Assembly (NCBI GenBank): GCA_023247915.1
Contig: JAHFFN010000005.1
Span: forward strand, 1-58,731
Reading direction: 5' to 3'
Source: Candidatus Omnitrophota bacterium
GTDB lineage: Bacteria; Omnitrophota; Gorgyraeia; 2-02-FULL-51-18
DNA: 58,731 nucleotides
This document shows, piece by piece, positions 14,411-32,600 of the stretch. The position numbers were made by a program, and so were the translations under genes. Under the pieces are notes generated by a model, which had not been told where the DNA came from, searched no databases, and saw only the letters and a list, made by a program, of their open reading frames with translations. Positions within the stretch are counted from its first letter, which is position 1. Every line of letters starts with the position of its first letter.

Positions 14411-14483
14411 GCCCCGGTAGCTCAATTGGATAGAGCACAGGTTTCCTAAACCTGCCATGGCCGTTCGATTCGGCCCTGGGGCA
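14411..14483 (+). tRNA. tRNA-Arg(CCT)
   Basis: GCCCCGG/CTGGGGC acceptor stem, TAGCTCAATTGGATAGAGC D arm, CAGGT-TTCCTAA-ACCTG anticodon arm, GTTCGATTC T loop; CCA not encoded. Confidence 0.93.
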
Positions 14484-14662
14484 CGATTTTTTCAGCCCTA
14501 CTCATAAAAGCTTAATTTTAATCAAACTTTAATAAATCATTATCAAACTGTCTTCTTGTATTCTGGCGGGGGATTGTGTACACTTCGCGAAAGTTCATTT
14601 AATTTCTTTTTTTGGCGGGTTTTTGCAGGGGTTTAGAAAACTGTTAAGGAAGGGGTCGATAC

Positions 14663-17600
14663 TTGAGAAAAACGAACAAGTTTTTGAAGGTTGTTTCGTC
14701 GCTTTTGGTGTATACCTTTATCTGCGAACAGCTGGCGTTCGCCAATCCTGATCTTTCCGCGATTAAGCTCGATTTATTTGCCAAGCCTAAAGTTGATTTG
14801 GGTATCCCCGAATCCGTTGCCACCGTCGAAGATGCCTTTGTGGGAACGGGATCTCCCAAGACCATTTATCTTATTCAAGACGCCCACACCAACACCTCCG
14901 GGCAGTTCAATGTCGCCAAAACTCTCGACCTTCTTTTTCAAAAAAATAAACAATTAAAATACGTTTTTCTCGAAGCCGGTCAAGGCGACGAATCGCTTTC
15001 TTTCTTAAGACAATATGCCAGTCTCGAAAAAAGAAAGCAGGCCTCCGAAGCTTTCTTGAGACAGGGGAAACTTCAGGGCTCTGAATACTTTGACCTGATC
15101 TCCGACAAACATCTTGTCCTGTGGGGCGTCGAAAACCTCAAGCTTTACGCCCAATCCGTCGAAGCTTATAAGGAAGTCGCCAACAATCGCGAGAAGTTTG
15201 AAGACTACCTCAAAAAGATCGATGTCACCGTCGATACGCTAAAGCCTCGTATCCTGAATCCCGCGCTAATGGCTTTTGACGCCAAGTATCAAAAATTTGC
15301 CAAACAAGAAATTTCTCTGACGGATTATTTTGCGATATTAGACGAGCAAGCTACCCACTTGCAGATTTCATTAGAAAAATACCCGCATTTCCAAAAGCTT
15401 TCCAAGCTTAAAAAACTTGAAGAAGAGATCGATTTCCAAAAAGCCAATGAAGAACAGGTCAAGGCTATTCAATCGTTAGATGCCAAGACTCAAGCCGAAC
15501 TTCTCGAAGCCTCCAAGGATAATTCCGCGTTAAGGCTGAAAGGGGAAAACAAAGAAAATAGAGCTTTCCACGCGCTTCTTGAAGAGAGGTTGAAAGGACT
15601 CCAGGCGTCCTGCCCTGAATTAAATAAATATTTTAACTACCTGAAAGAAGCCAACAAGATCGAACCTCGGCAGATTCTCCAAGAACAGAAAGATCTTGAA
15701 AAAGAAATCCTGGGGGCGTTGATCGTTACCGCCGATGAAGAAAGCCTACTCAAAGCCTCACGGAATCTCGAAACCCTGAAAAAACTTTTAAAACTGACTC
15801 TTACTCCCGAAGAGTGGGACGAGTACCAGAAAAACAAAACCTCTTTTGATGTCACCCGGATGACGGGCTTCCTTAATAAGAAGATTATGGACTTTGAAAC
15901 TTATTATGAGCGCGCGCTTTTCCTAGAAGAGGGGTATGAACCGATAGTCCAAAAAGCCGAAGAATTTTACTCGCTCACGTATCAACGCGACCAAGAGTTC
16001 ATCCAAAATCTCCAAACCAAAATGGACACCGAAGGCCAAAAAGAAGCCGTCCTCATTACCGGCGGTTTTCATAGCCCCAACCTTAAGTCCCTTTTGAAAC
16101 AAAAAAATATCTCTTTCGTTAATCTGACACCTCAAGTTCTCCAAGAAACCAATCAGAAACGTTATGAGGAGATTTTGTTGGGTCAAGTTGAGAGCCTTGA
16201 GAAATCCTTTGTCTCTCAAAATAGAATGTCTCCTTCCCGCGGGATCGCGACCCACATGGATCCTATACGCGTGCCAGCAGAAAGGGCTGTATTTGCAGTT
16301 GGGTTAGGGATAAAGAGTGATTCTACCGTCTTAAAAATATTAGGAGATCGGCAACAAAGATTGGCAGCAGGCTTGCTTGGCTTCTCTGGTGCTCGATTGT
16401 CCTCAAGCTTGAGCGATTCGCTTGTTGAATTTGTAAAATTAAATGGTTTTGAAGCAGTGCTCAATGCGTTTCTCGAAACGATCCCTAGCACGCCGGAAAT
16501 GACATTCCCGACAGTGAGATTCCTGAAAGTGAGTAGCGCAGAAACACCAGGTAAAATAGACTTCAGTTACTCTCTTGGAGATCCTCTTTTTACTGAAGCC
16601 CTGAGAGGCAACAAGCCCTTTTCCTTTAACAAAGAATTTAATTTGAGAACAGCAGAAGGTTTGAAGAGATTTTTTAAAGAAATTAACCGCAAGCCTGACG
16701 ATTTTTATTCTTGGCTAATAGGGCATCGTTACGAAGGTGTGTTCGACACAGGATTTATAGCTGCACTGATTAATCAGGCTAAGTCCGAGGAAAAATTAAA
16801 TGTGCGTGCAGGCAAGGGAGTCGAAAAAAATTCCGTTCTATATTTTGATGGCAAAAAAAACCAAAAAAATCCTCGGTTTGATATCTCCGATCCTGATGAG
16901 TTGCTTCGGCTGATGATGGCAACCGGAGTGACTTTTGAGGATCTTGAGGTTCAGAGAGCCATTCACTACGACAGGAGTTCGGGAGAGCCGAATAATGCAG
17001 CTGAAGAAGGGTGGGATGATTGGAATTTTAGCTCTCCGAATTCTCCAGTCTACAGAGGTTCCCCTGAAGTGGCGGCTCCCCTTATCGGCGCCCGCCTGGG
17101 GGTGATTCAAGATGCCCAGGAAGATATCACAAGAGCGCTTGGTCGTCGTGTGCGCATAGCAGCGGCCAGTAACTTTATGGCATCGGCTGAGTTTGCAGTA
17201 GAGCATACGAGTGATTTTATTTTTAAGAGGAATCTTGTTGAATTAGTCAGGACGGCTAAAGATGCACGTCTAGAATTAGTAGTTTTGCCGCGAGACCTTA
17301 CACACAATGTTGATTATTATGCAAACCACGTTGAGGTGCCCGTTCAATATGTTGCTAATAAACGGGTAGCTGTCAAAAATATCGTATTTTATGCCGAAGA
17401 AGACACTGGCTCGAAAGTTATTAGCGTAGAAACGAAAGTGGGAAGTTTTGTTGTGCCTAACCGCGTTTCCACATGGGAAGACAATGGCACGCTTTTGGTC
17501 AATATCGGATCCTCAAAGTCTCCCAAAAAATTAGAAGAAATAGAAAAGGTTCTCATAAAGGTTTTATTAGTAGACACAAAAAGCTCAAGAAAAGACGGTG

Positions 17601-20600
17601 CTCGCCTGTCAAAAACTTCAGACCTAACAGAGCCTCTCGCTGTGTGGGGTCAATTAATGGGAAATCCGGAATTTACGAAAGAATATCAAATAGTTCAGGA
17701 GGGCGGAACTCTTGTCCTTAAAACCAAATCAGGTAAAACACTTTCGCAAAAAGGAATCGCTGATCTGGGAACCCACTCCGCATGGGAGGAGTTCTTAAAG
17801 CCCACGCTTGGCGCCCGACTGGCTGATAAGTTTGGACTCCAATGGCATGACCTTCAAGGAATGGGTGGGTTGACGCTAGTAATTCATTTACGAGTTATTG
17901 TTAGTAATCAGGGGGACTATCCAAAATTCATAGTTGATGAAGCTAGAAAATTGATTGACGATCTTCGTGGTACAGGGGGGACGGCTCCGAATTATCATAT
18001 TTATGTTGAGCGCGCCAGATACTTGATGGAGGCCGTCAGGCTTTTGCGTGTTTTAGAGGCTATTATCCCTACAGCTGATTCGGAAATGGCTGCGGAAATG
18101 GCTGCCGGTTTAAGAAATGAATCGGGCGATAATTTTGCAACTTACAAAATACGAGTGGTGCAGGCTCGAGATTGGATCGGCGCCCGGCTGGCGAGAGCTC
18201 CAAAAGCTCTGAAAGATCCAAAAGCTTCGCGTCGGAAATTTGTTGCGGCTCAGAGGGAGCTTCTTGTATGGGATACGGCGCAAACAGAAAGAGTTTTGAG
18301 TGTTTTAGAAAAAATCCAAAGATCGAGATCTAAAAAACCCTCGAAAGTGGATATAGACGTAGTAATTTTGGCTTTGGCGGGCGACGAATGGATGCCTTTG
18401 ACAATGCTCGATTATCTTCACAAAAATCGTATGGATTTGACGGGCATTACGGCAGACCAAAGAGCTCGCCTAATCACCGCTCTAAAAAACCTTTCCCCAG
18501 GAAAAGCGCGCAGAGAAGTTTTAGCGAAGCTCGTTCGCCCCAAGATAAAAGCCAAAACTCCCAAGAGATATATATTGGATCATGGTGATCGTTTGATTGC
18601 TGCCCGGCTGTCAGGAGCCGCTTCTAAGCTACGCATCGCACTGGCTGGGGAGGATTTTGATGGCTCTGGCGAGGCTAATTTTGATCGTGGATTGTGGCTA
18701 ACCAATACGGGGGCTCAAGATACCTTAAATGGAATCATTTACTCTAATGAAAATTTTGATCCAAAGAGAAATGTTGTCGGGCATCGAGCCAATCTTCAGG
18801 TGGTATTAAATGGCAGTTCGCTTATTTTAAAATGGAACAATCAGACGGAGTACAAAGAGCGATTAATACGCAATTTACCGACTATACGAGAAATCCTGAT
18901 CCGCGTTTCCAAAGAGAACCGCCTTGTATTTGAGGACCAGACTCAAGGCGCCCGCCTCGCGGACAAACAGCCAGCTTCTCAGCGTACAGCACCTCTACCG
19001 GCTCGTATAGAATTTCACGACAAACTCCCGCCTGACCTGACGATAGGGAAACAAGTTGAGATTAAGTTGGATTCAGAATTTGGCGACAAGTTTAATGATC
19101 TTTGGGTAAGAGCGACTGTCGAAGGTGTCGAAGGGGAGAAGGTTCTGTTTCGGATTGCTTCGGGGGATGATGTCGATGCAACCCTTCGAGGTGTCCCAGT
19201 AAAAATTTATAATGAACGGACATTATCCACAGTTCGTCCGCTCGACGTTTTGGTGACGGATGCCCGGTCGTCCGGAGAGCCAGAAAAATTAACATGGATC
19301 GCGGAGTGGGAAACGCTTGGAAATTGGGGAGGGGTGAAGCGAGAGCTTTCGGCTATTGAGGATAAAGTTCTCCAAACTCATCTTAGAGGTAAAATCAACC
19401 GCCTTGTCAATATTCTAATCAGAAATGATCTTTTCTATTTTGCGCATCTAGACACGGCCATCCCAGTAGTGATTCAAAGGATGCAAGCGGATTCTTTTCA
19501 TTCATGGGAGCCTCTCATACGAGCCATCACGGCCGCTGAGTCTGGCCAAGACCCTTATCATATATTGATTAATGGCGCCCGGCTGGCAAAACCTCGTACT
19601 GCGTCCCGCGCTGTGCGTAAAACCTCAGATCTGACAGAGCCTCTCGCTATGTGGAGCCAGTTAATGGCAAATCCGGAATTTACGAAAGAATATCAAATAG
19701 TCCAGGAGGGTGGAACCCTTGTCCTTAAAACCAAATCAGGCGAAACGCTTTCGCAAAAAGGAATCGCTGATCTTGGAACCAACTCTGCATGGGAGTTGTT
19801 CTTAAAACCCACGCTTGGCGTCCGGTCGGAGACAAGAAAATATAGACTGATTAAGCGAATAGAAAGCGTTTTGCGTCTCAAAAGAAATTCAAAAATCAAG
19901 GAGCCGTATAGCGCTTCTGAAATCGAAGAACTCATCAAAGCTTTAAGACCCCTGGATGGTGTTGATTGGCGCCCCTCGATATCCGCTGCCGATAAGCTTG
20001 GAGATGCCAAATCTTCCAAAGCCATTGAGCCTCTGATGAAGTGGCTTGAGGATGGACGTGTTTATGATTTTCAAAAAGCCGTCGCTGAAGCTCTTGGTAA
20101 AATTGGCTCTGCCAAAGCCGTCCCTGCTCTGATTAAAACCTTTAATTTGCGTGACGATAGACGACCCCAGAAGGCTTACATCGCGGCTCTTGGGGATATT
20201 GGATCTATTAAGGCCGCACCATTTTTAATCAGAGTTTTGAAAAGTGGCGAAACCGAAGTCATTCGTCAAGCAGCCAAAAAAGCTTTGCGTCAGATCCATG
20301 AAAATTTAAAAAGGCGTGGAGCCCGACTAGCACTAACAAGCGACGTGATTAAGGGGGCAGTGGCGGCATTTAAAGAGGTCGCATTGTCTTCTAGATATAA
20401 GGATAGAAAAGATAGGGATATTATTGAGCAGAATTTAAATCGAGTGTTGCGAGCCAATCTTAGCATTACTTCGCGCGTAGAAGTGTTGGGTCAGCTTAAT
20501 TCGGCTGTGAATTGCTATCGAAGCCTCTCCCAGAAGCCAGATGCGGGAGCCCTTAGGAGAATTGACGATATTATTAATCAAATTTCTCGGGCGCAAGAGG

Positions 20601-23600
20601 CCTGGCAAGTTGAGCGGAGAGCCAAAAAAGCGCAGATCCGGAAATGGATGAAACAGATTAGAGTGGTTCTGACGGATAGTTTCGTTGAAGATATTGACGA
20701 CGATATATACCTACTGCTAGAAGAAAAAAAGAGCACTCAGGGATGGTCTGACCGTGAAAGTGTCGCTCATCAATTAGCTGACACCAAGTCTCTAAAAGTT
20801 GTTAAAGCTCTGAGCAAGTCATTATTGAATGATAGAGTGGCGAGAGTGCGCATTGCCGCCGCTAATTCTCTGGCGAATATCGGCTTCTCAGAGGCGATCC
20901 CCTCATTAATTAAAGCCTTGAAAGACGAAGATAAAGGGGTGCGCAATCAGGTTGTGCAGGCTCTGGGCGCGATTAAATCCCTTCGAGTGATTCGATCTCT
21001 GATCCCTATTTTGAAAGACAAAGATATCGAAGTTGTCCACTCTGTTGTTAAAGCGCTCGGCGATCTAGGATCTCCCAAAGCTGTCCCTGCTTTAATTGAA
21101 GTTTTGAAGCATGAGAACGAGGAGATCCGGGGGGAGGCTATTAAAGCTTTGGGGAATATTGGTTCTCCAGAAGCAATCCCGGCTTTGATCGAGTTACACG
21201 GAAAGGATGCCCATAGCGCTCCCATTATCGAGAAAGCCTTGGTCAGGATTTATAATAAAATGGATGGTTCTGCGGGGGCAAGACTGGCGAGTAAATTCAC
21301 CGCCGTGCCGTCGATGCTTGCTTTGACGCAGCTTCGTTTGTCCGAAACATCAAAAATGTCTTTCACTCCTCAGGGGATGCCCGAAGTTTTTGTGAATTAT
21401 GCCTATGTTGAAGATGCGGATCGATCTAATTTTACGGATCTCATTCAGGCCATTGCACCCGGCCTTATCAGTAAAGATCAAATTTCTTCGATTCGAGGCG
21501 CCGGAGTACTTTTTGCCGACGATACTCCTGATCGAAATTTGGGCTTAGGAGTTTTCTCTGCTTTAACATTTGTTGTGGATGGAGAACGTTATCTTGTTAC
21601 TTTATTCAAAAAAGACGATTTGTCGAAGAAAGCGCGTCTTGAGAAGATTACGCGCGCCTACTGGCAATTCATGTACGATCGGCCCGAATTAAGCACACAA
21701 GAGACGGAGCCTGTGTCGGTCACGGTCGCAAAAACAGAGGGTGATTGGAAAGCCGGCACTTTTAGAATTTGGCCCCAACAAAAAGGCGCTACTGCTGCCC
21801 GGCTGGCGGGTTCCCAGAAAAGAATGGATGCTATTGAGTATTCTATTAGGAGAGATCTGGAGCAGGTGGGCATTCATCACATTACTGATTTTAATCCCGA
21901 TCACCCTACGTCGCACGTGCTTGGAGTATTAAGGGATCTGTATCCTCTACAAAGTGGGGGCGTGGGTTATGCCTTAACTTCCGGAGAGGCTGATTCATGG
22001 GTGCGTCTAATGAATGTGCTTCGTTACGCAAATCAACACTTTAAGACCAATGAAATTTATATGGATATTCATTTTGACGCTCACGCAGTGAGGGCTTGGC
22101 TCAATGGCAAAGACCATCTTGTTGTTTCTATTAATTCGAATGCTGCCGGCCACTTCACGCTAGATTTTCATCCGAGGACGGATTTAAGAAAGCCTTTCTT
22201 GCAGGGACGCACCAGTCTTAGAGTTGACAGCGCCGGCCAGATCCACGAAGAAATCATCGGTGCCCGCCTGGCGGAATATGTTTCGCCGTTTGTGATTCAG
22301 CCGAGTTTTGATTTAAGCAATCCCACCCAAGTAATCGCTTCCGAGAACTTGCAGCGTCCTCCAGCAGCTGCTTCAGGCCGGCGAGATTTTATTCTTTATT
22401 TAGTCAAGGGAGACGGCAAATTTTATATTCGTTTAAATAAAAAAGAGGGTGTGGAGACAGGTCAATTTATCATAGGCTTGGAGAATCTAGGTGAAGCTTT
22501 TATTAGACGATATTTGTTCAATGACGATGGTTTAAATCTCAGTATTCTGAGTTTTTCCAGCCCGGAAAATAACTTCATAGAGTTTATTTATGGAGATTCT
22601 TACGATGCTCAACAAGCCGCTGTTATGTTCAAAGGAATTTTGGACAGTTATCACAGAAGCATAGTGACTCCAACAGGCACGCATGGTCAGACGGACGGAC
22701 CGAGAGATGAGGAAGGCGCCCGTCTGTCTTTGAAAAACAGTTCGGAGTTCGTAGTTCGGAGAAACCACCGATCGCAGTCATCAACCAGCCTTTCACTCCC
22801 AACCCCGAACTCAAACTCCGCCGCCCGGCTATCGAGTAGTAATATTCATGTTTATACTCCAGAACAATTTAACAGCCTTGTCCAAAATGGGCTGATAAAG
22901 CGCGGTGATATTATTTCATACGGCTCTGGCGGTAGCATGTTTTTTAGTGACGCTATTTTTGCACGGATGGCATTGGATAAAGATGGTAAACGTGGCACTG
23001 TTGTTTTGATTTTGAATGGAAGCGCAGATCAAAGGGAGAGCGAAATTAAATTTCGCGAGGGGATGATGTTCGCGGCGTCCGTCGACCTTATGCTTAAAAA
23101 TCAAAAATTAAATGCCCGAAAAGATGTTGAAGCGAACAGAAAGAAAGTCAAGGGTTCCGGGATCTTTAAACGGAAAGCATTGTATGTGCGGAAAACATTT
23201 TTTCCTTCCACCGTTCGCAATATCCATTGGGGGGAAAGAAGATTTTTCGTACAATTTGTTGAATCTCGAAATAACCGATTTAAGATTACAAGAGAGTCCG
23301 AATATCACGAGAAATACGATATCTACGAATTTATTTATAAGATTTCTATTCCTCCAGGAAAGATTCGCGGCATAGAAGATATTCATTTTCTTATGAGTTT
23401 GTTGGGTGATGGATTTCACGATAGGCGCTGGGGCTTTTATAGCAATACCGGTCCTTGGTGGAGAGATGATGAGGAATTTATAAGATGGTTCTCCAAAATC
23501 GCAAAGAAAATCGGAACATCCGCCTCTAGCCCCTCACCTCTAACCTCTTCCCTTGGTAGCGAAGCTACCAACTCCGGCGCTCGCCTGGCAAGTTTTTCGA

Positions 23601-26600
23601 AAGTGTTGATAACTGATTTCTTAAAAGACAATAGTCCTTTGGGTAAAAATGTATGGATCAAGATTAATAATGCGCCTACGAATGTTTCTTGGGCAAGGCA
23701 TGCAGAAGATGCTTGGATGATTCATGGTCATAACGGGCACATCGGCACTATTCCCAACATCGGTCTCCAGCCGCTTACAAGTAGGGATGTTGTGGCTATT
23801 GAAAGATTTTGGCCTATAGAAATGATCAGTGATCTTCTGAAAAGGAAACCCCAGAAACTTTTGATGGTGCAAAGCGGCGCAGGTAAAAATTATCTCGTGC
23901 GGGAAGATGGTTTGTTCTTGGAGGTGGATGCTAACGACGTGATACAAGCCTCATGGGGTCAACTTCAGGCCAATGCGCTTACGGATGATTTTCTAGGCCA
24001 ACTTCCTCAAGTCAAGGCGTGGATTAATGGAACATTTGGCTCAAAGAAATTTTGGCGGCAAATAGCGCCACATTTAACTCGTTTATTAAAATTTAATTCA
24101 CTGAGCGGCAGCCGGCTGGCGGAAGATAAAGGGGTGGAAGTGGAGCAGTTGATTGCATTTTCTCCTAAAGATCAATCCATCACAATTAATTCTCCTCTAG
24201 TGGCGCCAGCCGATAGGACAATTCATTTGTTTGGTGATGGGGAAACCACCTTTACTTTAATCACTTCCGAAGTTTTAGCGGAACAGCTTAATCGATGGGT
24301 ACCTGGATTTCCCAAAGGTGTTAGGGAGCGAATTTCGTTTCAACCCAACCCAGACTTAGCGGAGGGAGTGCTCATACTGGACTCTAGTCGTGAAAAAGGC
24401 GAGGAACGTATTGGTAGCCTCCTCTTGTGGGATGATCTCGAAGATTTAGCCCAGGATTTTGCGGCGTATCTTAACCCTTTTCTTAAATCGAGGATCCCCC
24501 AATTTCAAGAAAACTTATTCCAACGCTTGTTCACTTCTGGGTATTCACGATTGATTCGGCAGCGATTCGTTATCGGATCTTCGGTAAGCATGGGATCTAT
24601 TTGGATTTCATTTTTAGCTCCTTCCACGTTATGTCGATTTGTTTTGATGCCGATGTTGGAAAACACTAACAACAAAGAAGCCTTCGGATTCATTGCTTAT
24701 TTTGCGGGAGTCGCCATAGCGCTTCATCTATTCAATCGTTTGTCGGACAAACTTGCGGGCTCTAAATCAACAAAAGGCGCCCGCCTGGCCGCCGGCACAC
24801 TAAGTAGAGAAGAGACTAAAGACGCCAAGAGTTTGGCTGGAGAGATCGCTTCTAAAACAAGAGTTCAGTTATTGGGTATCCAGAAAAAACTTAAACTTCT
24901 ACAAGGATTTGACGAAGAGAAGGGTTTGACCAAAAAACAAGAGTCGACCACTATCAGCATTCGAAAATCGGCCCAAAAAATCGAGTCTCTGTCTTTGTTC
25001 GCATTGCTCAAAGAAGCTACGATTAGACCGGGACAGGAAGTTTTAATGGATACATTATCCACAAGAACCGGCAAAGAACTTCAATCAGACCCCCCACAGT
25101 TCGATCTAAAATATACAGCAACCATAATCTCTGTGTTGGCAGAGGATTTGCTTCTGACTGGCGAAAAAAGGTTTTTGCGGGGTATCCGTGCATCAGTTGA
25201 AAAAGCGGTCAGAATCGTTTCTAATTTGGCGGCTTACGCTTCTTCAGCAGAGCTAACGACGAATTTTAAGTCTGTGAGGAGTTTTAAAAAGAAACAATTC
25301 AGGATTATCGATCTAAGCAAATATTCCGCCGCCCGCCTGGCGACGCTTCCGTTGACGCAGCTTCGTTTGTCCGAAACATCGAAAATGTCCGCCACTCCTC
25401 AGGGGATGTTCGATGTTCTTGTGAAATACGCCTATGTTGAGGATGCGGATCGATCTAATTTTGCGGAGCTCATTCAAGCCATTGCGCCCGACCTCATCGC
25501 TAAAGATAAAACTTCTTCGATTCGAGGCGCCGGAATACTTTTTGCCGATGACACTCCTGATCAAAATTTGGGCTTAGGAGCTTTCTCCGCTTTAACATTC
25601 CTTTTGGATGGAAAGCGTTATCTCATTACTTTATTCAAAAAAGACGATCTGTCGCAGAAAGCGCGTCTCGAGAAGATTACACGTGCCTACTGGCAATTCA
25701 TGTACGATCGACCCGAATTAAGTGAACGAGAGGCGGATCCTGTGTCAGTCACGGTCGCAAAAACAGAGGGTGATTGGAAAGCCGGCACTTTTAGAATTTG
25801 GCCACAACAGAAAAGCGTCACTGCCGCCCGCCTGACGGGAAATAATTCGAAATTTATTCGAACTTTTCTCGCCGCGCTTTTGATTGGGGTGGGAGGCTGG
25901 TTTTTATCGAAGTCCGCTAAACAAGAAACCAAATCCGTTTCTTTGAAATTCAATTCTTGGTCTACTCAAGCTCCCGTTTTCTATCGATACCAAGCTCAGC
26001 AAGCGAGCTCCGGCAAAGTGATGACGCGCATGGCGAGTATTAAAACTTCTGAGAAAATCATTCTCAATGCCTCTCAAAAGCTGCGGATGATGATCCGAGC
26101 CAATCAAGTGAACCCTCAAAACAAAGAAGAAGCCATTACGCTGACTCTTATTGGCACCGATGCTTTTGGAAAACCTCTCAAAATTTATGCTGGTTATATG
26201 ACTTTTACTTCCAAAGGAACTTATGAGGCGGTGTTTTCATTGAATGAGCTGGGGCCACGAGTCATTCATGTGAACGAGCTCCTCCTTATGGGAGTACCCG
26301 TCACTTCCGCGGACGACAGAAGCTTTATCCCCGACTGGATTGTGAAAGACGAGATTGTCATCGAAGAAGCTGCTGTCCCCGGCGGCGCCCGGTTGGCGAA
26401 AAGAAATCAGCATTTTTTTGTTATTTGGGGAAGTTTTATAGCGCTCCTATTATTGCCGCTCATTCCTGAGTCGTCCAAAAAACTTGCTTCGCCGGCTGGT
26501 TTGGTCGAGAACACTAACGTCTCTATCGATAAAATTTATTCGGCTTTTGAGACGATTTCCAAGAAAGAGAAAAGCTTGGAGGAGCGCGAAAAAGCGGTTC

Positions 26601-29600
26601 AATTTTTGATAGCCAATATTCAATTTTCTTCTCAGCGAGATGAGATTGTTATTCAATTGATCAGCTCCTTCAAAGATCTCAGCATGAATGAAATCGCCAC
26701 TCTTGAGCATTATGTGGAGATTCTGGTCAAGCTAAGGCTAACCAAATCGGAAACCGAACAGGCGCTTCGTTCTTTAGAAGCCCTTCAGTCTAAACTTGCG
26801 ATCCATTCCACCGAGCTCACCTTTGCTCGTGCGAATGAGGCCACTTTATACGTCGCCACCAGCCTTCTTAAGCGTGTAGAAGAAGCCATAGCCACATTAT
26901 CTAAAAAACCCGCCGGTGCCCGCCTTGGGACGGGGCAAAAAGAAAGCCTGCCTTTTACTAAAGCTCAATTAGTTCGAATACATTCTGAGGGAGTGGCTAA
27001 GCTACCACGGAAAGATTATATCGTTGATTTAGCAATAGATAACCAGCCAACTCAAATTAGGGCGAATAGTCTCGTAACGACTCTTGAGCAGTTACAAGAG
27101 GGCGCTCTTTATGTGATACATGCTTTGCATGTTAACCATATTTCGGGGCAAATAAGCCTAGGTATTCATTCAGTGGTGGCAGCTGCGAGATTAAGTGGTT
27201 CGGCGATGAGAGCTATTTATTTATCGTTAACGATTATGCTTTCCGGCGTACTACAAACAGTTGCGGATACGGTGCAGTTTGCATTTGATAAAGGAAGAAC
27301 ATCCGTAACGGTGCTCGTCAATGGTAAGCCGCAACCGCGGAGCCGTCTCGTGGGCGCGAATTATCAACCGACAGAGCCCGGACAACACATCACTCATTAT
27401 CAGGAAGGCAAAATACGCGAGCTTGTCGCCCAGCTCCTTCCCAAAAATGACCCCACCTTGGTGGCGTTAGGACTTGGAGAGATGGGGAAGAATGATTTAG
27501 AGCGAATGAAAAAGACCGGCATCTACAACATCCATCTTTATCAGGTACCTTTGGAAGATAAAGCGGATATTGACGCGGTTAAGAAAATTTTAAGACGCGC
27601 TCACGAATTGAATAAAGATTTTTATGTGTCGGTCGGACATTGGGCGGGGCTCTGGTCTCAACCCGGTTCCCCTGAGCTTTCCGCTAACACGTACCAGGAG
27701 CGCATGAAAGTCGTCGACAGCGTGATGAATATGGTCAAGCTTTACGCCGAAGAGCCTTGGGCGGGTAAATGGGTGGTTGGCGTTGAAAATAATTATTATG
27801 CCAGAGGCGGCGCTTTTGCCGGCACCAAGTCTTTGCCGCTGCGCATTGGCAGTGAATACTACGACTTTATGGTGCAGCTCGCCGTCGCGATTAAATGGCA
27901 AGAGAGGCAGCTTAACACCGCCGCTAAGCCCGTGTATCATCCGGTGGTTTTGAGCAATGGCAGCCTCACGGAGTCTCAAGCTCAAATCATCAAGGAGATG
28001 AATGAGAAATGGGCTAAGGAATTGAATGGAGAATTGCCTGTTGATGCGATCGGGGGAACTTTTTATCCTGGAATTAATTTTGAGGGTCAAAAAGTAAGCG
28101 ACAATGGCATTGCAGAAGCATTTGAACATTTTGTTAAACTATCTTGGGAGATCGCGGGACTTCCGCTGGTTGTCGTTGAGACCGGACCCTGGGCTCAAAC
28201 CGTCAACTCCGACGAGCAAGTTCGTTGGTATGGCGCTGCGAAACCGGCATTTGTAAACACTGGCAAATTTGCTGGGATCGATATTTTTGAATTCATCAAT
28301 GAAGGCGGTTGGAAATCTCGCGAGACAGGCCGCGCCAGTGAAGATTGGTTTGGAATTTACACCAATGAAAGAGAGCCCAAGCTTTTTGCGCGTCAGGGAG
28401 CTTTCACCGGATTGAAATGGGAAGATGGCAAAGTCCTACCATTCGAACAGCCGGCCGCTTTAAAGCCTTTTCCGACGCAACCTGTTTTCTTGAGAACGCG
28501 CACAGCTTCTACACAAACTCCTGCGGCTGATAGCTCCATTATTCAACTCGAAGGCTTCCAGACTTGGAGCGGCGCCGGAGCTTTTTCAACGTATAAAGAT
28601 ACCCGAGTTAATTTAACCGGATACAAAACAGTTCGCCTTACTTTTAATACTACCGACGCTGGCGCTGAATTTTATATTCGTCTTTTAGATCCCGCCGGCG
28701 CTTACGACTCCAACTCAGGATCTATGGGTCCATTCCGAGTGCCCAAAGCTTCTGATGTGAATCAGCCGATTACGATGGAAATAGGAATCACCGGAGGAAA
28801 TATCAAACAATTTTCAATCCACACAGGAACGGTTTGGGATAATTCAACACACCTTCCCAAAAGAAATCTAGTCCCCATTAAAGTAGAGTTTTTAAAAACA
28901 CCCCCAGCCAAAAAAACCGGCGGCGCGCGGCTGTCCAATCAAGATTCGAATATGGACGTTGCGTCTATAGCCAAGATATTTTTTGAGCGTGTGTTGACGC
29001 CTGAAAACAGAGTCAAGATCTCTCGGTTTTTAGCGGATCATTTTTCTTCGCCTTTTTCTTCTCAGCCCGAGCGCTTATCCTTCGAGCATTCTGGCTACCG
29101 ACTGGTTTTGACCTCGGAGCCGAGTGGTACTGAGGAATTCCCATTAACCGTTTTGATTGAAAAGAAAATAGGGTCTTTTAATGCGGATGAAGTTGGCGCG
29201 TTTGAAGCGTATAACTTTTTGTTTCATGAGAGAGCCAGCGGTCTTAAAACTTTCGAAAAACAACTTTTAGCGTCTCGCGATTTTTCCAAGCCTTTGAAAG
29301 TGCAGTTTAACATGATGCCATTCGCTGCTTATATTGATTCTAAAAAGCCCGACCGAATTAATTTCGTCATGGAGTACCGTCGTGTCCCCACTGGCGCGCG
29401 TTTGGCGGCACCCGAGGCGTACACAACTCAAGTTTTTAAAGCAAAAGGTTCGGACTTTGCACACAAAATTACGGTGACGAAATCTCCCGATGGAGTCTTA
29501 GCGATTGATCTGCAGACGGACTCTTTTGTTGGTTATACCCTGGTAGGGCATTTTTCTTCAAACTTTGAAAGACCGCTTGAAGTCGATCCTGCTTTTTTGA

Positions 29601-32600
29601 GAGAGTTGTCCACTGAGTTTTCTTTTGATCATGATATTCTGCGTAGAATCAGAGAAATGATGCAGGTCATAAAAGCACAAAACGTGGAATGGTTCGCGGA
29701 AACAATCAAAACAGCTCTTGAAACAGGAAGCATAGAATTATACCCCGGCATCTCTCACCACGATGCGGCTATGGCTATTCTAGAGCAACCGTTATTTACG
29801 AAAAATCAATTCATTGGGGAGCATTCTCAAAGTCTGAGCCATGCAGAGCGCACGATCCTGTCGCGTATTTACCAAAGACATGGCCAACTAGGGGGACGTA
29901 GGGCTGACATCGCTACTCATCAAGCCGCGCGTTTGGCGACGGCCGTCAGCATCGACGAGCTAAAGAAAACCGATCCAGAGATAGCAGCGGCACTGGAACG
30001 AAGAGGTGTCAAATTTGTTTACAATCATAGGGACAAGAACCATACCGTGGACGTTCTGCGGGCGATGAGAGAGCATGGAGATTCTCCGTCGTGGTTGCAT
30101 TTTCTTAGCATTCTCGACCAAGCGGCAACGCATAGCGGGCTGGATGCCGTTTATTTTGGTCCTACGGTTGAAAAAGATTATTTTGATGCTAGCCTTGAAA
30201 AATATTTTACGCCATCACCCAAGCTAATCACGCTTTCTTTTACAGGGAACACCCTTAATTTCAAAGCGCAGAATCTAGAACCTAAAAAACATCAAATTCT
30301 TTTAAGTTTAGGGGCAAACTCTGATTCTTTGGCATGGCAGTTGACTCGCAAAGGCTATTTCGTTACTCAAGCAACCGATTATCATTATAACCATCCCCAG
30401 CAGTATGCATCGCACTCTTACACGGATTATGATTATTTGGTAACGGACAAAGCAGCGATTGCTGAGCATGCCCGTTCTGTAGATTCCGCCTTGTCGGTGA
30501 TTCAAACGCCTGAGCCGGGCGTTTCCCTGCGGGATGATTCCGCTATTGTCGAAGAGATTAGTCGAAGGACCGAGCTTCGCTTTTTAGGATTTGATAATTT
30601 TAATCCTCCGCTTGTTCATGACAATGGCGTTCATCAGACGCTAAATAAAAATGAGCAGATAATCTATTTTGATGTGAATTTTGACCGCTCATTGACAGAG
30701 AAAGAGCTCAAAAGATTGAAGGTACAGCTTTATTATGAAGATCCGCAGGGAGATGGAAACCAATGGTTTTCCGAAGAAGCGATAGAGCCTCTTAATGCTG
30801 AAGACCCTCATGGTTCTTATCAGTTCTCTGTTGCCCTGCATCCCCGGGTACGTCAATATAAAGTCAGAGTTTCTTGGGACGGGGGATATGCGTGGCACTA
30901 TTTTAAACCTCAAAATATCCAAGTGCATTATGCTCCCTCCGCCGGCGCGCGTTTGGCGGATTCGATACCGTCAGTAAGTCGTCAGTATTCGCTCACAGCG
31001 GCGCAGGCGGATGCCATCAAAAGATGGTTAACGCCATACACAGGGCAGACCGCTCCAAGCGTCCATCACTTTGTGCATTATTTTTTACGGGATAATTACG
31101 GCTTCATTATTCCGGCACGCGATGCAGGCATCTTAAAGGAGGAGGCCACTGTCGAGGTGCCGAATCGATCGATTCGTATCAATGATCAAGATGGAATTAC
31201 ATTTGTCCAGATGAGCCTCTCCGGAGACGGCCGCACTTTAACGTTAAAGGCTCTCGCGAAGGAAAAAAATTCCTACGGAAAAGATTCCAATGGACTGTTG
31301 GAAATATTTAAAGGCTATATTTCTACTACAGTAGAAAGTGAATTACATCCTGTCGTTGCCGCGCGTTTGGCGGCGGAAAATCTCGATCAGGGGGATGTAA
31401 TTTATATGGGCGGAACCGGTCCGCGGATTGTGCTGAAAAATGACAATCTTAAACCCGTCAAACCGACTCACAGAATACAAACTTTGCTTGTAGACGAGCA
31501 TCATCTAAACACTCCTGAATGGGCCACGCTTGACTGGTTTGAATCTCATTTCGAAACCGCCGTGCGGTATATGCCGAATAGGTTTTTTAATGGCCAGGGA
31601 GAGCCCTCAATTTATCAAACAGCTTTATTTCAGGTCACCGAGGGTTCTTATGCAGGCATTTATCATGGCATGCTAATAAGCGATCGAGATCCTGAGATGG
31701 CCGAGATCTTGAGTTATGAGCCCACCCAGCACACTTTATTGCCTTTCGAAGGAAGATTGATTCAAGTTGAAAAATCTAAAGTTAGGTTTTTCCCTCACAA
31801 GTCTTTGATGGTCGATAACTCGAGTACCGCCGCGTCTCGTGCGTTGAAAAGATATATTGATGAGAAGACTAAAGAGTGGGGCGACAAGAAGCCTTCCAAG
31901 GTTAAAGCGGGTTGGGATAGAGTTCACATTGAATGGAATGACGGATCTTCGCATACTTGGGATCTGACGAAGGGTGGCGATTTGGAATCGATCGCGTATT
32001 GGTTAAAGGGTAATTTATCCGAGCTTGATTCTATGCGCGCGATGATTGCCGAGGCCATCCGAAATGCAGCCGATTTTACTCCAGAGAACATTACTCGGAG
32101 AGCCAGAGAAGTCATCGCCAATGTATTGCGTGAAAAAGGGGTGAGTATAGATCAAATTGCCTTAGACACAGATCTTGAAACGTTGGGATTAGATTCGATA
32201 GATCATGTGGGAATGGTGTTGGATCTGGACGAAGAATTTGAAATCGATATTCCCGACGCCGCTTCCGCAGAATTCAAAACCCTGTCGGACGTGGTGCGCT
32301 GCATTCAGCAAATCAAAGCGCCCGAAGCTCCCGCCGCGCGTTTGGCGGGAAATGAATCCTTGGTCGAAGAGGTCAGAGCTTTTGACGCGGCGGCTTTGAA
32401 TCCTACAATTTGGGATAAAAACACGGGTCTTGCTATCGTCAAGCCCGCTCAAACGATCAATGAATTTCCGGAACCCATGCGGCCATTTTTGAGTGCAGCG
32501 ACGATTCATGATGAACGAGGAAATTTTACCCCGGGGCAACTTGTCACTTCTTCTCTCCAAATGCCCTCAGCGATGAATACGCCTGGTCTGAAAGAGAAAA

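Follow-up and report, generated by a model that had tools for sequence, protein, structure and literature searches.

The window analysed here is the whole 58,731-nt stretch of contig JAHFFN010000005.1 (C63 in our numbering) from the genome assembly of a Candidatus Omnitrophota bacterium (GCA_023247915.1; 1.65 Mb in 81 contigs, 89.6% complete). It carries a giant open reading frame (ORF) whose first domain behind a short leader, termed here the head (residues 28-575), is followed by a chain of modules delimited by a five-residue motif of the form [GA]-A-R-L-[AST], GARL for short. We tentatively propose, as the best explanation of the whole and with a little less than even confidence, that the head represents a family without a name so far within the TIKI/TraB/ChaN/EreA superfamily of hydrolases and serves as the GARL-cutting leader protease of polyproteins. 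The parts of this proposal differ in strength: the head is very probably an active TIKI-superfamily hydrolase, the GARL motif is probably a proteolytic site, and the step that joins the two, in which the head is itself the enzyme that cuts the motif, is plausible at somewhat under an even chance.

The head is modelled by AlphaFold2 with a predicted local distance difference test (pLDDT) value of 85.0 and a predicted template modelling (pTM) score of 0.79 from an alignment of 35 rows, and a second model built on another alignment reproduces the same fold. The modelled core has five or six strands (DSSP assigns strands at residues 53-59, 67-73, 100-103, 107-109, 152-156, 461-467 and 484-490), and about 300 helical residues break in after the third conserved strand. 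Comparison with 48,161 representative chains by VIA-align places ChaN first (2g5g; Z 9.4, 185 residues aligned, root-mean-square deviation (rmsd) 5.2) and EreC second (6xcq; Z 9.0, 160 aligned, rmsd 3.5), with 2qgm (8.6), HopBA1 (5t09, 8.2), Bcr135 (2rad, 7.9), PMT (2ebf, 7.0) and RRSP (5w6l, 6.7) further down within the top 15. The other top rows are helix bundles aligned over the insert or generic Rossmann-like sheets, and the insert alone (residues 159-457) matches only helix bundles in fold searches. In a second VIA-align comparison, run on Foldseek candidates, seven of the ten best Protein Data Bank entries are ChaN, EreC, HopBA1, Bcr135 and RRSP (Z 9.4-7.1), EreC scoring 8.9, Bcr135 8.1 and RRSP 7.1. 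The remaining three are one Tetrahymena mitochondrial complex IV subunit (8b6h_DQ, 8bqs_DQ and 7w5z_E; Z 8.5-7.1), which, judged from this match to the model, may be an unrecognised TraB-like protein. PMT, HopBA1, Bcr135 and ChaN are structural relatives of RRSP in the TIKI superfamily, which is characterized by a central parallel beta-sheet with flanking helices (PMC6254334). Our fold call is based on the recurrence of this one superfamily together with the correspondence of motifs described below, rather than on Z values alone, and the TIKI/ChaN/EreA fold suggested for the domain in a preliminary description of this DNA is thus supported by both AlphaFold2 and VIA-align.

The conserved motifs of the head lie in five segments, KTIYLIQDAHTNT (66-78), LKYVFLEAG (98-106), HLVLWGVENLK (150-160), LTYQRDQEF (438-446) and QKEAVLITGGFHSPN (459-473). 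The preliminary description had singled out QDAH75, VFLE104, WGVE, R442-D443, GGFH470 and a Lys/Glu-rich helical insert; the first five are all found where it put them, as LIQDAH75, YVFLE104, LWGVE157, R442-D443 and ITGGFH470, and the insert (residues 159-457) is indeed entirely helical in the model, with 13.0% Glu and 12.0% Lys compared with 6.7% and 6.8% in the whole 6,899-residue protein. Each of the four strand-associated motifs sits at the C-terminal end of a beta-strand (67-73, 100-103, 152-156 and 461-467), and the strand ends that hold them in the model are the location of the active site in this fold. D73-x-H75, E104 and H470 match, in order and spacing, the 2His/2Glu catalytic set of RRSP (E3900, H3902, E3930 and H4030) and H85/E113 of Bcr135 (PMC6254334), and simple arithmetic on the alignment ranges brings H3902, E3930 and H4030 of RRSP to within about 5 residues of H75, E104 and H470. 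All the elements of a 2His/2Glu-type site are thereby present in the head sequence, namely an acid-x-His, a Glu about 28 residues later and a His in G-x-x-H, with Asp in place of the first Glu (it is Glu in two of the stand-alone heads discussed below). H75 and E104 lie 29 residues apart; the corresponding His-to-Glu spacing is 28 for RRSP as for Bcr135, and 26 for canonical TraB/GumN proteins. The Arg-to-His spacing is 28 (R442-H470), compared with 26 in TraB.

Conservation of the head points the same way. An alignment of 128 heads has D73, H75, N77, E104, G155, E157, Y162, N405, F435, Y436, R442, D443, G467, G468, H470, P490, T496 and Y501 invariant, and a set of 37 divergent heads, taken from some 20 genomes throughout the phylum, keeps [D/E]73-x-H75, Q81, E104, G155-x-E157, Y162, F435-Y436, R442-[D/E/N], GG[F/Y]H470, P490 and Y501 (the [D/E]-x-H columns are missing from two 5'-truncated heads, L045 and L046). 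N405 and T496 are fixed only in the lineage that uses GAR[L/M], which shared ancestry can explain. The head motifs are not due to chance, and the catalytic arrangement proposed in the preliminary description is supported by the invariance in the 128 and 37 heads and by the spacing.

The GARL motif is equally sharp. The giant ORF has 29 [GAS][AS]RL sites, 19 of them GARL, at intervals of 35-704 residues, and the head is free of GARL up to residue 576, as the preliminary description had it. Counted as [GA]ARL there are 28 sites, compared with a mean of 0.54 and a maximum of 3 in 500 shuffles of the same protein. Among the 56 stop-to-stop ORFs of at least 800 residues in this genome, 11 contain the strict motif four or more times and the other 45 not once; together the 11 comprise 52,201 residues in about 160 modules and account for 9.5% of the assembled bases. 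A logo of the 157 sites in these ORFs reads [G/A]-A-R-L-[A/S/T], with a weak preference for Ala in front and no other conservation. Wherever the N-terminus of a motif-bearing ORF is assembled (8 of 8 cases) the head comes first, and in all eight head-bearing ORFs the first site follows 77-106 residues after the catalytic His. Across the 130 representatives with at least 250 residues beyond this histidine, the first site lies 44-148 residues past it in 105, and none occurs within 400 residues in 15. In its anatomy, though in its anatomy only, this is the layout of a processed chain, with a release site next to the head and the same site recurring downstream.

Two rival explanations of the motif itself have to be weighed against these patterns. 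The 29 sites draw on every one of the six Leu codons and on five of those for Arg; the variation of synonymous codons at the motif indicates that selection acts on the protein. Together with a position that is always in frame, and with the replacement of L by M, I, F and V in relatives, a chemically conservative series, this makes it scarcely credible that the motif is a nucleic-acid-level signal such as a cassette recombination joint or an RNA element, which would find its argument in the strong GC-richness of the motif codons (CTG encodes 16 of the 29 motif Leu, compared with 96 of 715 Leu in the ORF; CGN 27 of the 29 motif Arg, compared with 259 of 394; at the fifth position GCG is frequent). 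The GC-rich codons could reflect spread of the junction by duplication, or a translational effect.

The second rival holds that the giant protein remains uncut as one multi-module chain, with the motif serving as a conserved element that links or docks the modules. Here the surroundings of the motif are informative. The roughly five residues on either side are low in hydrophobics (24%, compared with 32.5%), and the junction is modelled as coil of low confidence, as would suit a cleavage site. The 163 motif-delimited modules include 12 homologous non-head pairs, 4 of which align up to the motif-defined C-terminus of both members. At 10 of 150 sites a signal-like or transmembrane-like segment begins no more than 40 residues behind the motif; random positions give 3.8 on average, and a count of 10 or more came up in 3 of 300 draws. 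Hydrophobic segments before the motif occur at 3 of 150 sites (random mean 3.9). A five-residue motif with unconstrained flanks, repeated 157 times between unrelated modules, placed at a fixed distance behind a hydrolase-like domain and at the ends of duplicated cassettes, and followed more often than by chance by hydrophobic segments of N-terminal type, speaks against an uncut chain. We therefore regard this alternative as quite improbable, in spite of the facts that cleavage has been observed by no one, that the flanking linkers are very short (about five polar residues per side), that the junction is not docked in the AlphaFold2 model, and that Omnitrophota giant ORFs have been treated in the literature as single adhesin-like or membrane proteins (PMC10066038; bioRxiv 10.64898/2026.06.07.730766). 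Recurrence, fixed distance, cassette ends and hydrophobic starts, taken together, are more readily explained by a processing site than by a structural linker.

If GARL is a processing site, the head is the natural candidate for the enzyme, since it is the sole domain common to all polyproteins, always stands first, has a site at a fixed distance behind it and is accompanied by no other recognisable peptidase. Pfam peptidase families were found neither in the 6,899-residue ORF nor in the 45,296 residues of the ten other motif-bearing ORFs. Downstream of the head in the giant ORF, Pfam recognises HEAT-type repeats and one PP-binding domain (acyl carrier protein, ACP) and nothing else; across the motif-bearing ORFs its matches are HEAT repeats, ACP, WD40, LRR, PAS, HTH, methyltransferase, PGM and fucose pyrophosphorylase. 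We propose that the head, translated first, would fold and work in the manner of a viral leader protease, as an endopeptidase that frees itself at [GA]-A-R-L-[AST] about 80-105 residues behind its catalytic His and would then cut the same motif between downstream modules, probably in trans as well as in cis. Action in trans is proposed because the motif is uniform genome-wide. It is for the head that we infer peptidase activity, along with the scissile bond and cis or trans action. The head may or may not need a metal, as the metalloprotease of the preliminary description would; within the superfamily, RRSP and EreB are metal-independent and Tiki is metal-dependent (PMC6254334).

The head is widespread in its phylum. 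In this genome paralogues start giant ORFs on seven other contigs, giving at least eight giant ORFs headed by the domain, and two further fragments lie at contig ends. The head leading the ORF on contig C57 (L048) is the most divergent of the genome (K77, M405, N443 and S496), and its polyprotein has the sparsest motifs, 5 in 3,739 residues. An exhaustive HMMER scan of 1.84 billion cluster representatives returned 7,478 proteins at E <=0.001, of which 1,905 at E <=1e-30; in the best 150 matches, gene calls cut at contig ends aside, the head lies close to the N-terminus, and the proteins reach about 7,000 residues. Out of a sample of 201 genomes of the phylum, 151 encode the head, mostly more than once, and it seems confined to Omnitrophota within the data searched, the related records and clusters being labelled Candidatus Omnitrophota. 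A search for shorter head homologues yielded fragments only, and a single head protein used as query retrieved 3 related loci. The one member of the family that lacks a head, G109, is 95% complete and shows no match to a GARLA-coding pattern, compared with 5-16 in four head-bearing relatives, a result that says no more than that heads and polyproteins occur together.

A number of results weigh against our proposal, the first of them concerning the fold and what can be read from it. VIA-align Z values of 7-9.4 are middling by the tool's own scale, and Foldseek against the Protein Data Bank gives no match at E <=0.001, the best being Bcr135 (3b55, 0.11) and EreC (6xcs, 0.93). A sequence profile of the head searched against the same database returned coiled-coil noise in the insert only. 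Pfam, NCBIfam and the ESM Atlas place the head in no named family; PF01963, PF04187 and PF05139 were not found by hmmscan in the head or 35 homologues at E up to 1, nor PF01963 in this genome at E up to 10, and DUF5682 matches 2 of 35 head-family members (E 0.003). Alignment by hhalign to 31 TraB/GumN proteins is weak (E 0.078 over the full alignment and 0.0079 when restricted to the C-terminal core, with a probability of <=5%); it pairs RD with the invariant R269-N270 and GGFH with GAGH of TraB/GumN, and the N-terminal core of the head is not in register. The fold assignment being well supported and the sequence link weak, we place the head in the superfamily by its fold, as a new family outside existing Pfam families. 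The superfamily also includes esterases and a haem-binding protein, so that the fold does not prove a peptidase. AlphaFold2 applied to the head plus junction leaves GARL undocked, as coil with pLDDT 30-36, which neither shows docking in cis nor counts as evidence against it. Finally, the leader points to export or anchoring, yet at least one module, the ACP, is of cytoplasmic type.

The specificity of the motif adds to this side of the balance. Covariation of head sequence and motif, which the preliminary description had suggested looking for, is not supported: which residue is preferred at the fourth position of the motif tracks the genome and not the head lineage. Sorted by this residue, 49 of 128 parent proteins have L at 80% or more of their sites, 19 show a mixture, 9 have mostly M, A, F, I or V, and 51 are too short or have fewer than four sites. 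In this genome strict L goes with heads only 26-33% identical to that of the window (contigs C11, C8 and C57), and genomes G093 and G035 likewise keep strict L, with heads as low as 26% identical to that of the window among the three genomes. All seven polyproteins of genome G087 are relaxed to L/M/I/F/V, and their heads share only 30-47% identity among themselves. On the head tree the non-L variants are dispersed (9 changes for 9 rows, compared with a mean of 8.7 after shuffling), and the head alignment offers no convincing column that would set G087 apart from the strict-L genomes. The uniformity of the motif within a genome fits one shared specificity, which could be that of trans-acting heads with a common pocket or that of another enzyme.

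For the latter case, one shared enzyme would indeed be the simplest account of a motif that is uniform per genome over very divergent heads and relaxed in all G087 polyproteins. The head, as a TIKI-fold hydrolase or binding domain, would then have some other task, for instance that of a membrane-anchored targeting leader or an esterase, consistent with the non-protease members of the superfamily and with the stand-alone heads that keep the catalytic set where no GARL occurs, and a different protease would cut GARL in trans. C39 peptidases come to mind, as the G-A before R resembles their Gly-Gly/Gly-Ala site. The first two motif positions are G or A and then A, Ala at the second position being found in 56 of 157 sites, which may speak against a C39 site, and the invariant R-L-[AST] would fall on the primed side, unlike in double-glycine leaders. 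C39 and S8 domains are present in other giant ORFs of this genome: a C39 domain (C61:2179-2445) in an ORF of 1,652 residues (C61:1-4956) and an S8 domain (C61:12650-13528) in one of 2,068 residues (C61:12017-18220). Both ORFs are without GARL, so that this genome also encodes giant proteins of a second class. West-Roberts et al. (bioRxiv 10.1101/2023.11.21.568195) have put forward both peptidase types for the giant proteins of Omnitrophota. Of five head-bearing relatives (96-100% complete), C39 was found in three and S8 in four; C39 was not found in two and S8 not in one, these genomes being 96-98% complete. Cutting by another protease also leaves unexplained why each polyprotein has a head of its own and a site at a fixed distance behind it. 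On balance we consider this alternative rather unlikely, and keep the head as our candidate for the GARL-cutting enzyme.

Further points that speak against a junction-cutting head come from lineages without GARL. At eight loci from other families within the phylum, the head has an ORF to itself, 513-548 codons long from stop to stop, and keeps the catalytic residues; these stand-alone heads of about 450-500 residues lie beside large ORFs without GARL. In five of the eight, an ORF of 921 to more than 2,298 residues, free of any GARL-type site, follows within a few bases or overlaps the head (L013, L014, L015, L019 and L020); these downstream ORFs have a signal-like start and fused enzymes of central metabolism, such as aldolase-PFK-GAPDH, aldolase-FBPase, a PEP-utilising enzyme and MeaB-methylmalonyl-CoA mutase. 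Upstream of the stand-alone head at L014 there is a giant ORF with a SecA domain. In three lineages an RSELR-like repeat is found instead of GARL (L020 in G022:C9, L022 in G094:C60 and L023 in G028:C62), for example 13 SELR in one ORF of 2,204 residues and, in a stretch of 5,365 residues, 5 RSELR compared with 0.01 expected; further lineages show no enriched 4-mer. The occurrence of stand-alone heads in GARL-free lineages indicates that the head is older and wider than the GARL mark, and either the specificity of the head has changed over time or its function is not junction cleavage. With slightly more reserve than for the head itself, we consider it possible that a large share of the Omnitrophota proteome is expressed as in RNA viruses, each polyprotein having a TIKI-fold leader protease and cuts at GAR[L/M]-[A/S/T]; by the same view, and with equal reserve, other lineages would use an RSELR-like mark, or a separate protease gene ahead of multi-enzyme fusions.

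The features of the giant ORF are collected in Table 1.

Table 1. Features of the giant ORF and its head, in window coordinates
Feature	Coordinates	Strand	Description
Giant ORF	14663..35362	+	6,899 aa, TTG start; head followed by 29 motif-delimited modules
Leader, residues 1-27	14663..14743	+	Signal-peptide-like or membrane-anchor-like: basic start, hydrophobic core, ...AFA before NPD
Head, residues 28-575	14744..16387	+	Predicted TIKI/ChaN/EreA-fold domain with helical insert and tail of ~100 residues
N-terminal half of core sheet, residues 53-157	14819..15133	+	Carries D73-x-H75, N77, E104 and E157
D73-A74-H75 codons	14879..14887	+	Proposed acid-x-His of the catalytic set; cf. E3900-x-H3902 of RRSP
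E104 codon	14972..14974	+	Proposed catalytic Glu; invariant
Insert, residues 159-457	15137..16033	+	All-helical, Lys/Glu-rich; R442-D443 in its last long helix
R442-D443 codons	15986..15991	+	R invariant, next residue D/E/N
C-terminal half of core, residues 461-520	16043..16222	+	Strand-GGFH470; GG[F/Y]H invariant
H470 codon	16070..16072	+	Proposed second catalytic His; invariant
First junction GARLS, residues 576-580	16388..16402	+	106 residues after H470
28 further [GA][AS]RL[ASTG] junctions	16403..35362	+	Modules of 35-704 aa between; at residues 809, 979, 1050, 1173, 1313, 1429, 1638, 1886, 2205, 2378, 2533, 2685, 2720, 2972, 3149, 3372, 3556, 3721, 3908, 4085, 4174, 4754, 4911, 5088, 5428, 5566, 5891, 6595
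Signal-like module starts	~25769-25891, 26330-26452, 27128-27250, 34391-34513	+	Basic, then hydrophobic

The start of the giant ORF is preceded, 8-9 nt upstream, by a Shine-Dalgarno-like box, AAGGAAGG. A hydrophobic 15-mer comparable to that of the leader, with a conserved FA|[NA]P end, is present in 99 of 116 Met-starting head homologues, and such a leader would export or anchor the head. The neighbouring genes are housekeeping genes (glycyl-tRNA synthetase, PPDK, a sigma-70 factor, tRNA-Arg, FtsH and DHPS). The tRNA-Arg(CCT) gene (14411-14484) is directly 5' of the giant ORF, and a tie between it and the motif was considered and rejected: AGG encodes none of the motif Arg residues, so there is no evident link between the two.

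Within the ORF, the module pairs 979-1050/1638-1715 and 2205-2378/3556-3721 (residues) are internal duplicates, 84-90% identical, and the second copy of the former pair has GVRS in place of GARL, which looks like a decayed junction. A basic stretch and a hydrophobic segment, resembling a signal peptide or anchor, come right after the motif at residues ~3721, 3908, 4174 and 6595; the segment at residue 3908 is followed by PLIPESS, which echoes the conserved IPES (residues 48-51) behind the head's own leader. In two other polyproteins (contigs C81 and C8; L047 and L049) the last motif lies 10-12 residues ahead of the stop, where a cut would release a very short tail. Two further ideas were given up. 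The module at residues 5891-6595 finds no support as a phosphoglucose isomerase, PF00342 matching contig C3 only, and the notion that the giant ORFs carry the only copies of housekeeping genes was dropped, as the genome has a further ACP besides that of the polyprotein.

Giant ORFs are a hallmark of Omnitrophota whose function is poorly understood (PMC10066038), and one paper on the phylum describes 'multi-enzyme metabolic clusters'. West-Roberts et al. (10.1101/2023.11.21.568195) state that their cleavage points are unknown, for which reason these proteins could not be divided for analysis in that study. The published giant ORFs resemble ours in phylum, length, paucity of recognisable domains and multi-enzyme tiling; in the available main text of these accounts, supplements being outside our scope, neither a junction motif nor a TIKI/TraB-like head is named. 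A description of the head/GARL system was likewise not found in the literature searched, a scope exclusive of subscription journals and supplements. The head together with its sharp motif provides a concrete rule for where the chains would be cut, dividing the giant ORFs into units of about 200 residues for annotation and structure prediction, and the head is a candidate enzyme with a five-residue recognition site. If our proposal is true, it would be a third proteolytic branch of the TIKI superfamily beside Tiki and RRSP, and would make polyprotein expression a cellular and not only a viral strategy. The wider reading for the phylum, if true, would be the first general polyprotein-processing system in a cellular organism, and would supply the missing cleavage map of the Omnitrophota giant proteins.

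With the TIKI/TraB/PrgY/GumN/ChaN/erythromycin-esterase superfamily (Tiki1/2, RRSP, EreA-C, Bcr135/136, ChaN and HopBA1) the head shares the parallel-sheet core, the acid-x-His after a strand with a Glu 28-29 residues later after the next strand, and the Arg-[N/D] in a helix with a G-x-x-H after a strand 26-28 residues later. It is unlike the members of this superfamily in its helical insert of about 300 residues between the half-sites and in being the first domain of proteins several thousand residues long. MARTX and large clostridial toxins undergo autoprocessing by a C80 domain at short linkers, after a Leu that is followed by a small residue, and this site resembles the ...R-L|[A/S/T] of our junctions. 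In MARTX the cutting between modules is the work of a separate cysteine protease domain. A C80 search of this genome gave no match, nor did the control genomes give any. The toxins differ from the polyproteins here in protease fold, in depending on a host-cell trigger, in having few modules and in occurring as one protein per genome, compared with no fewer than 11 ORFs, some 160 modules and a 9.5% share of the genome. The RRSP (DUF5) domain of MARTX is, like the proposed head, a TIKI-fold endopeptidase with a 2His/2Glu set in a very large, modular and processed protein; unlike the role proposed for the head, it cuts host Ras (PMC6254334). Closest in logic are the viral leader proteases, such as P1 of potyviruses, which cuts in cis at its own C-terminus (PMC3946448). 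They are alike in having an N-terminal protease, a release site at a fixed distance and many unrelated products from one translation product; the system proposed here would differ from them in belonging to a cellular genome, in its fold, in the many polyproteins per genome and in a motif that is common to all of them.

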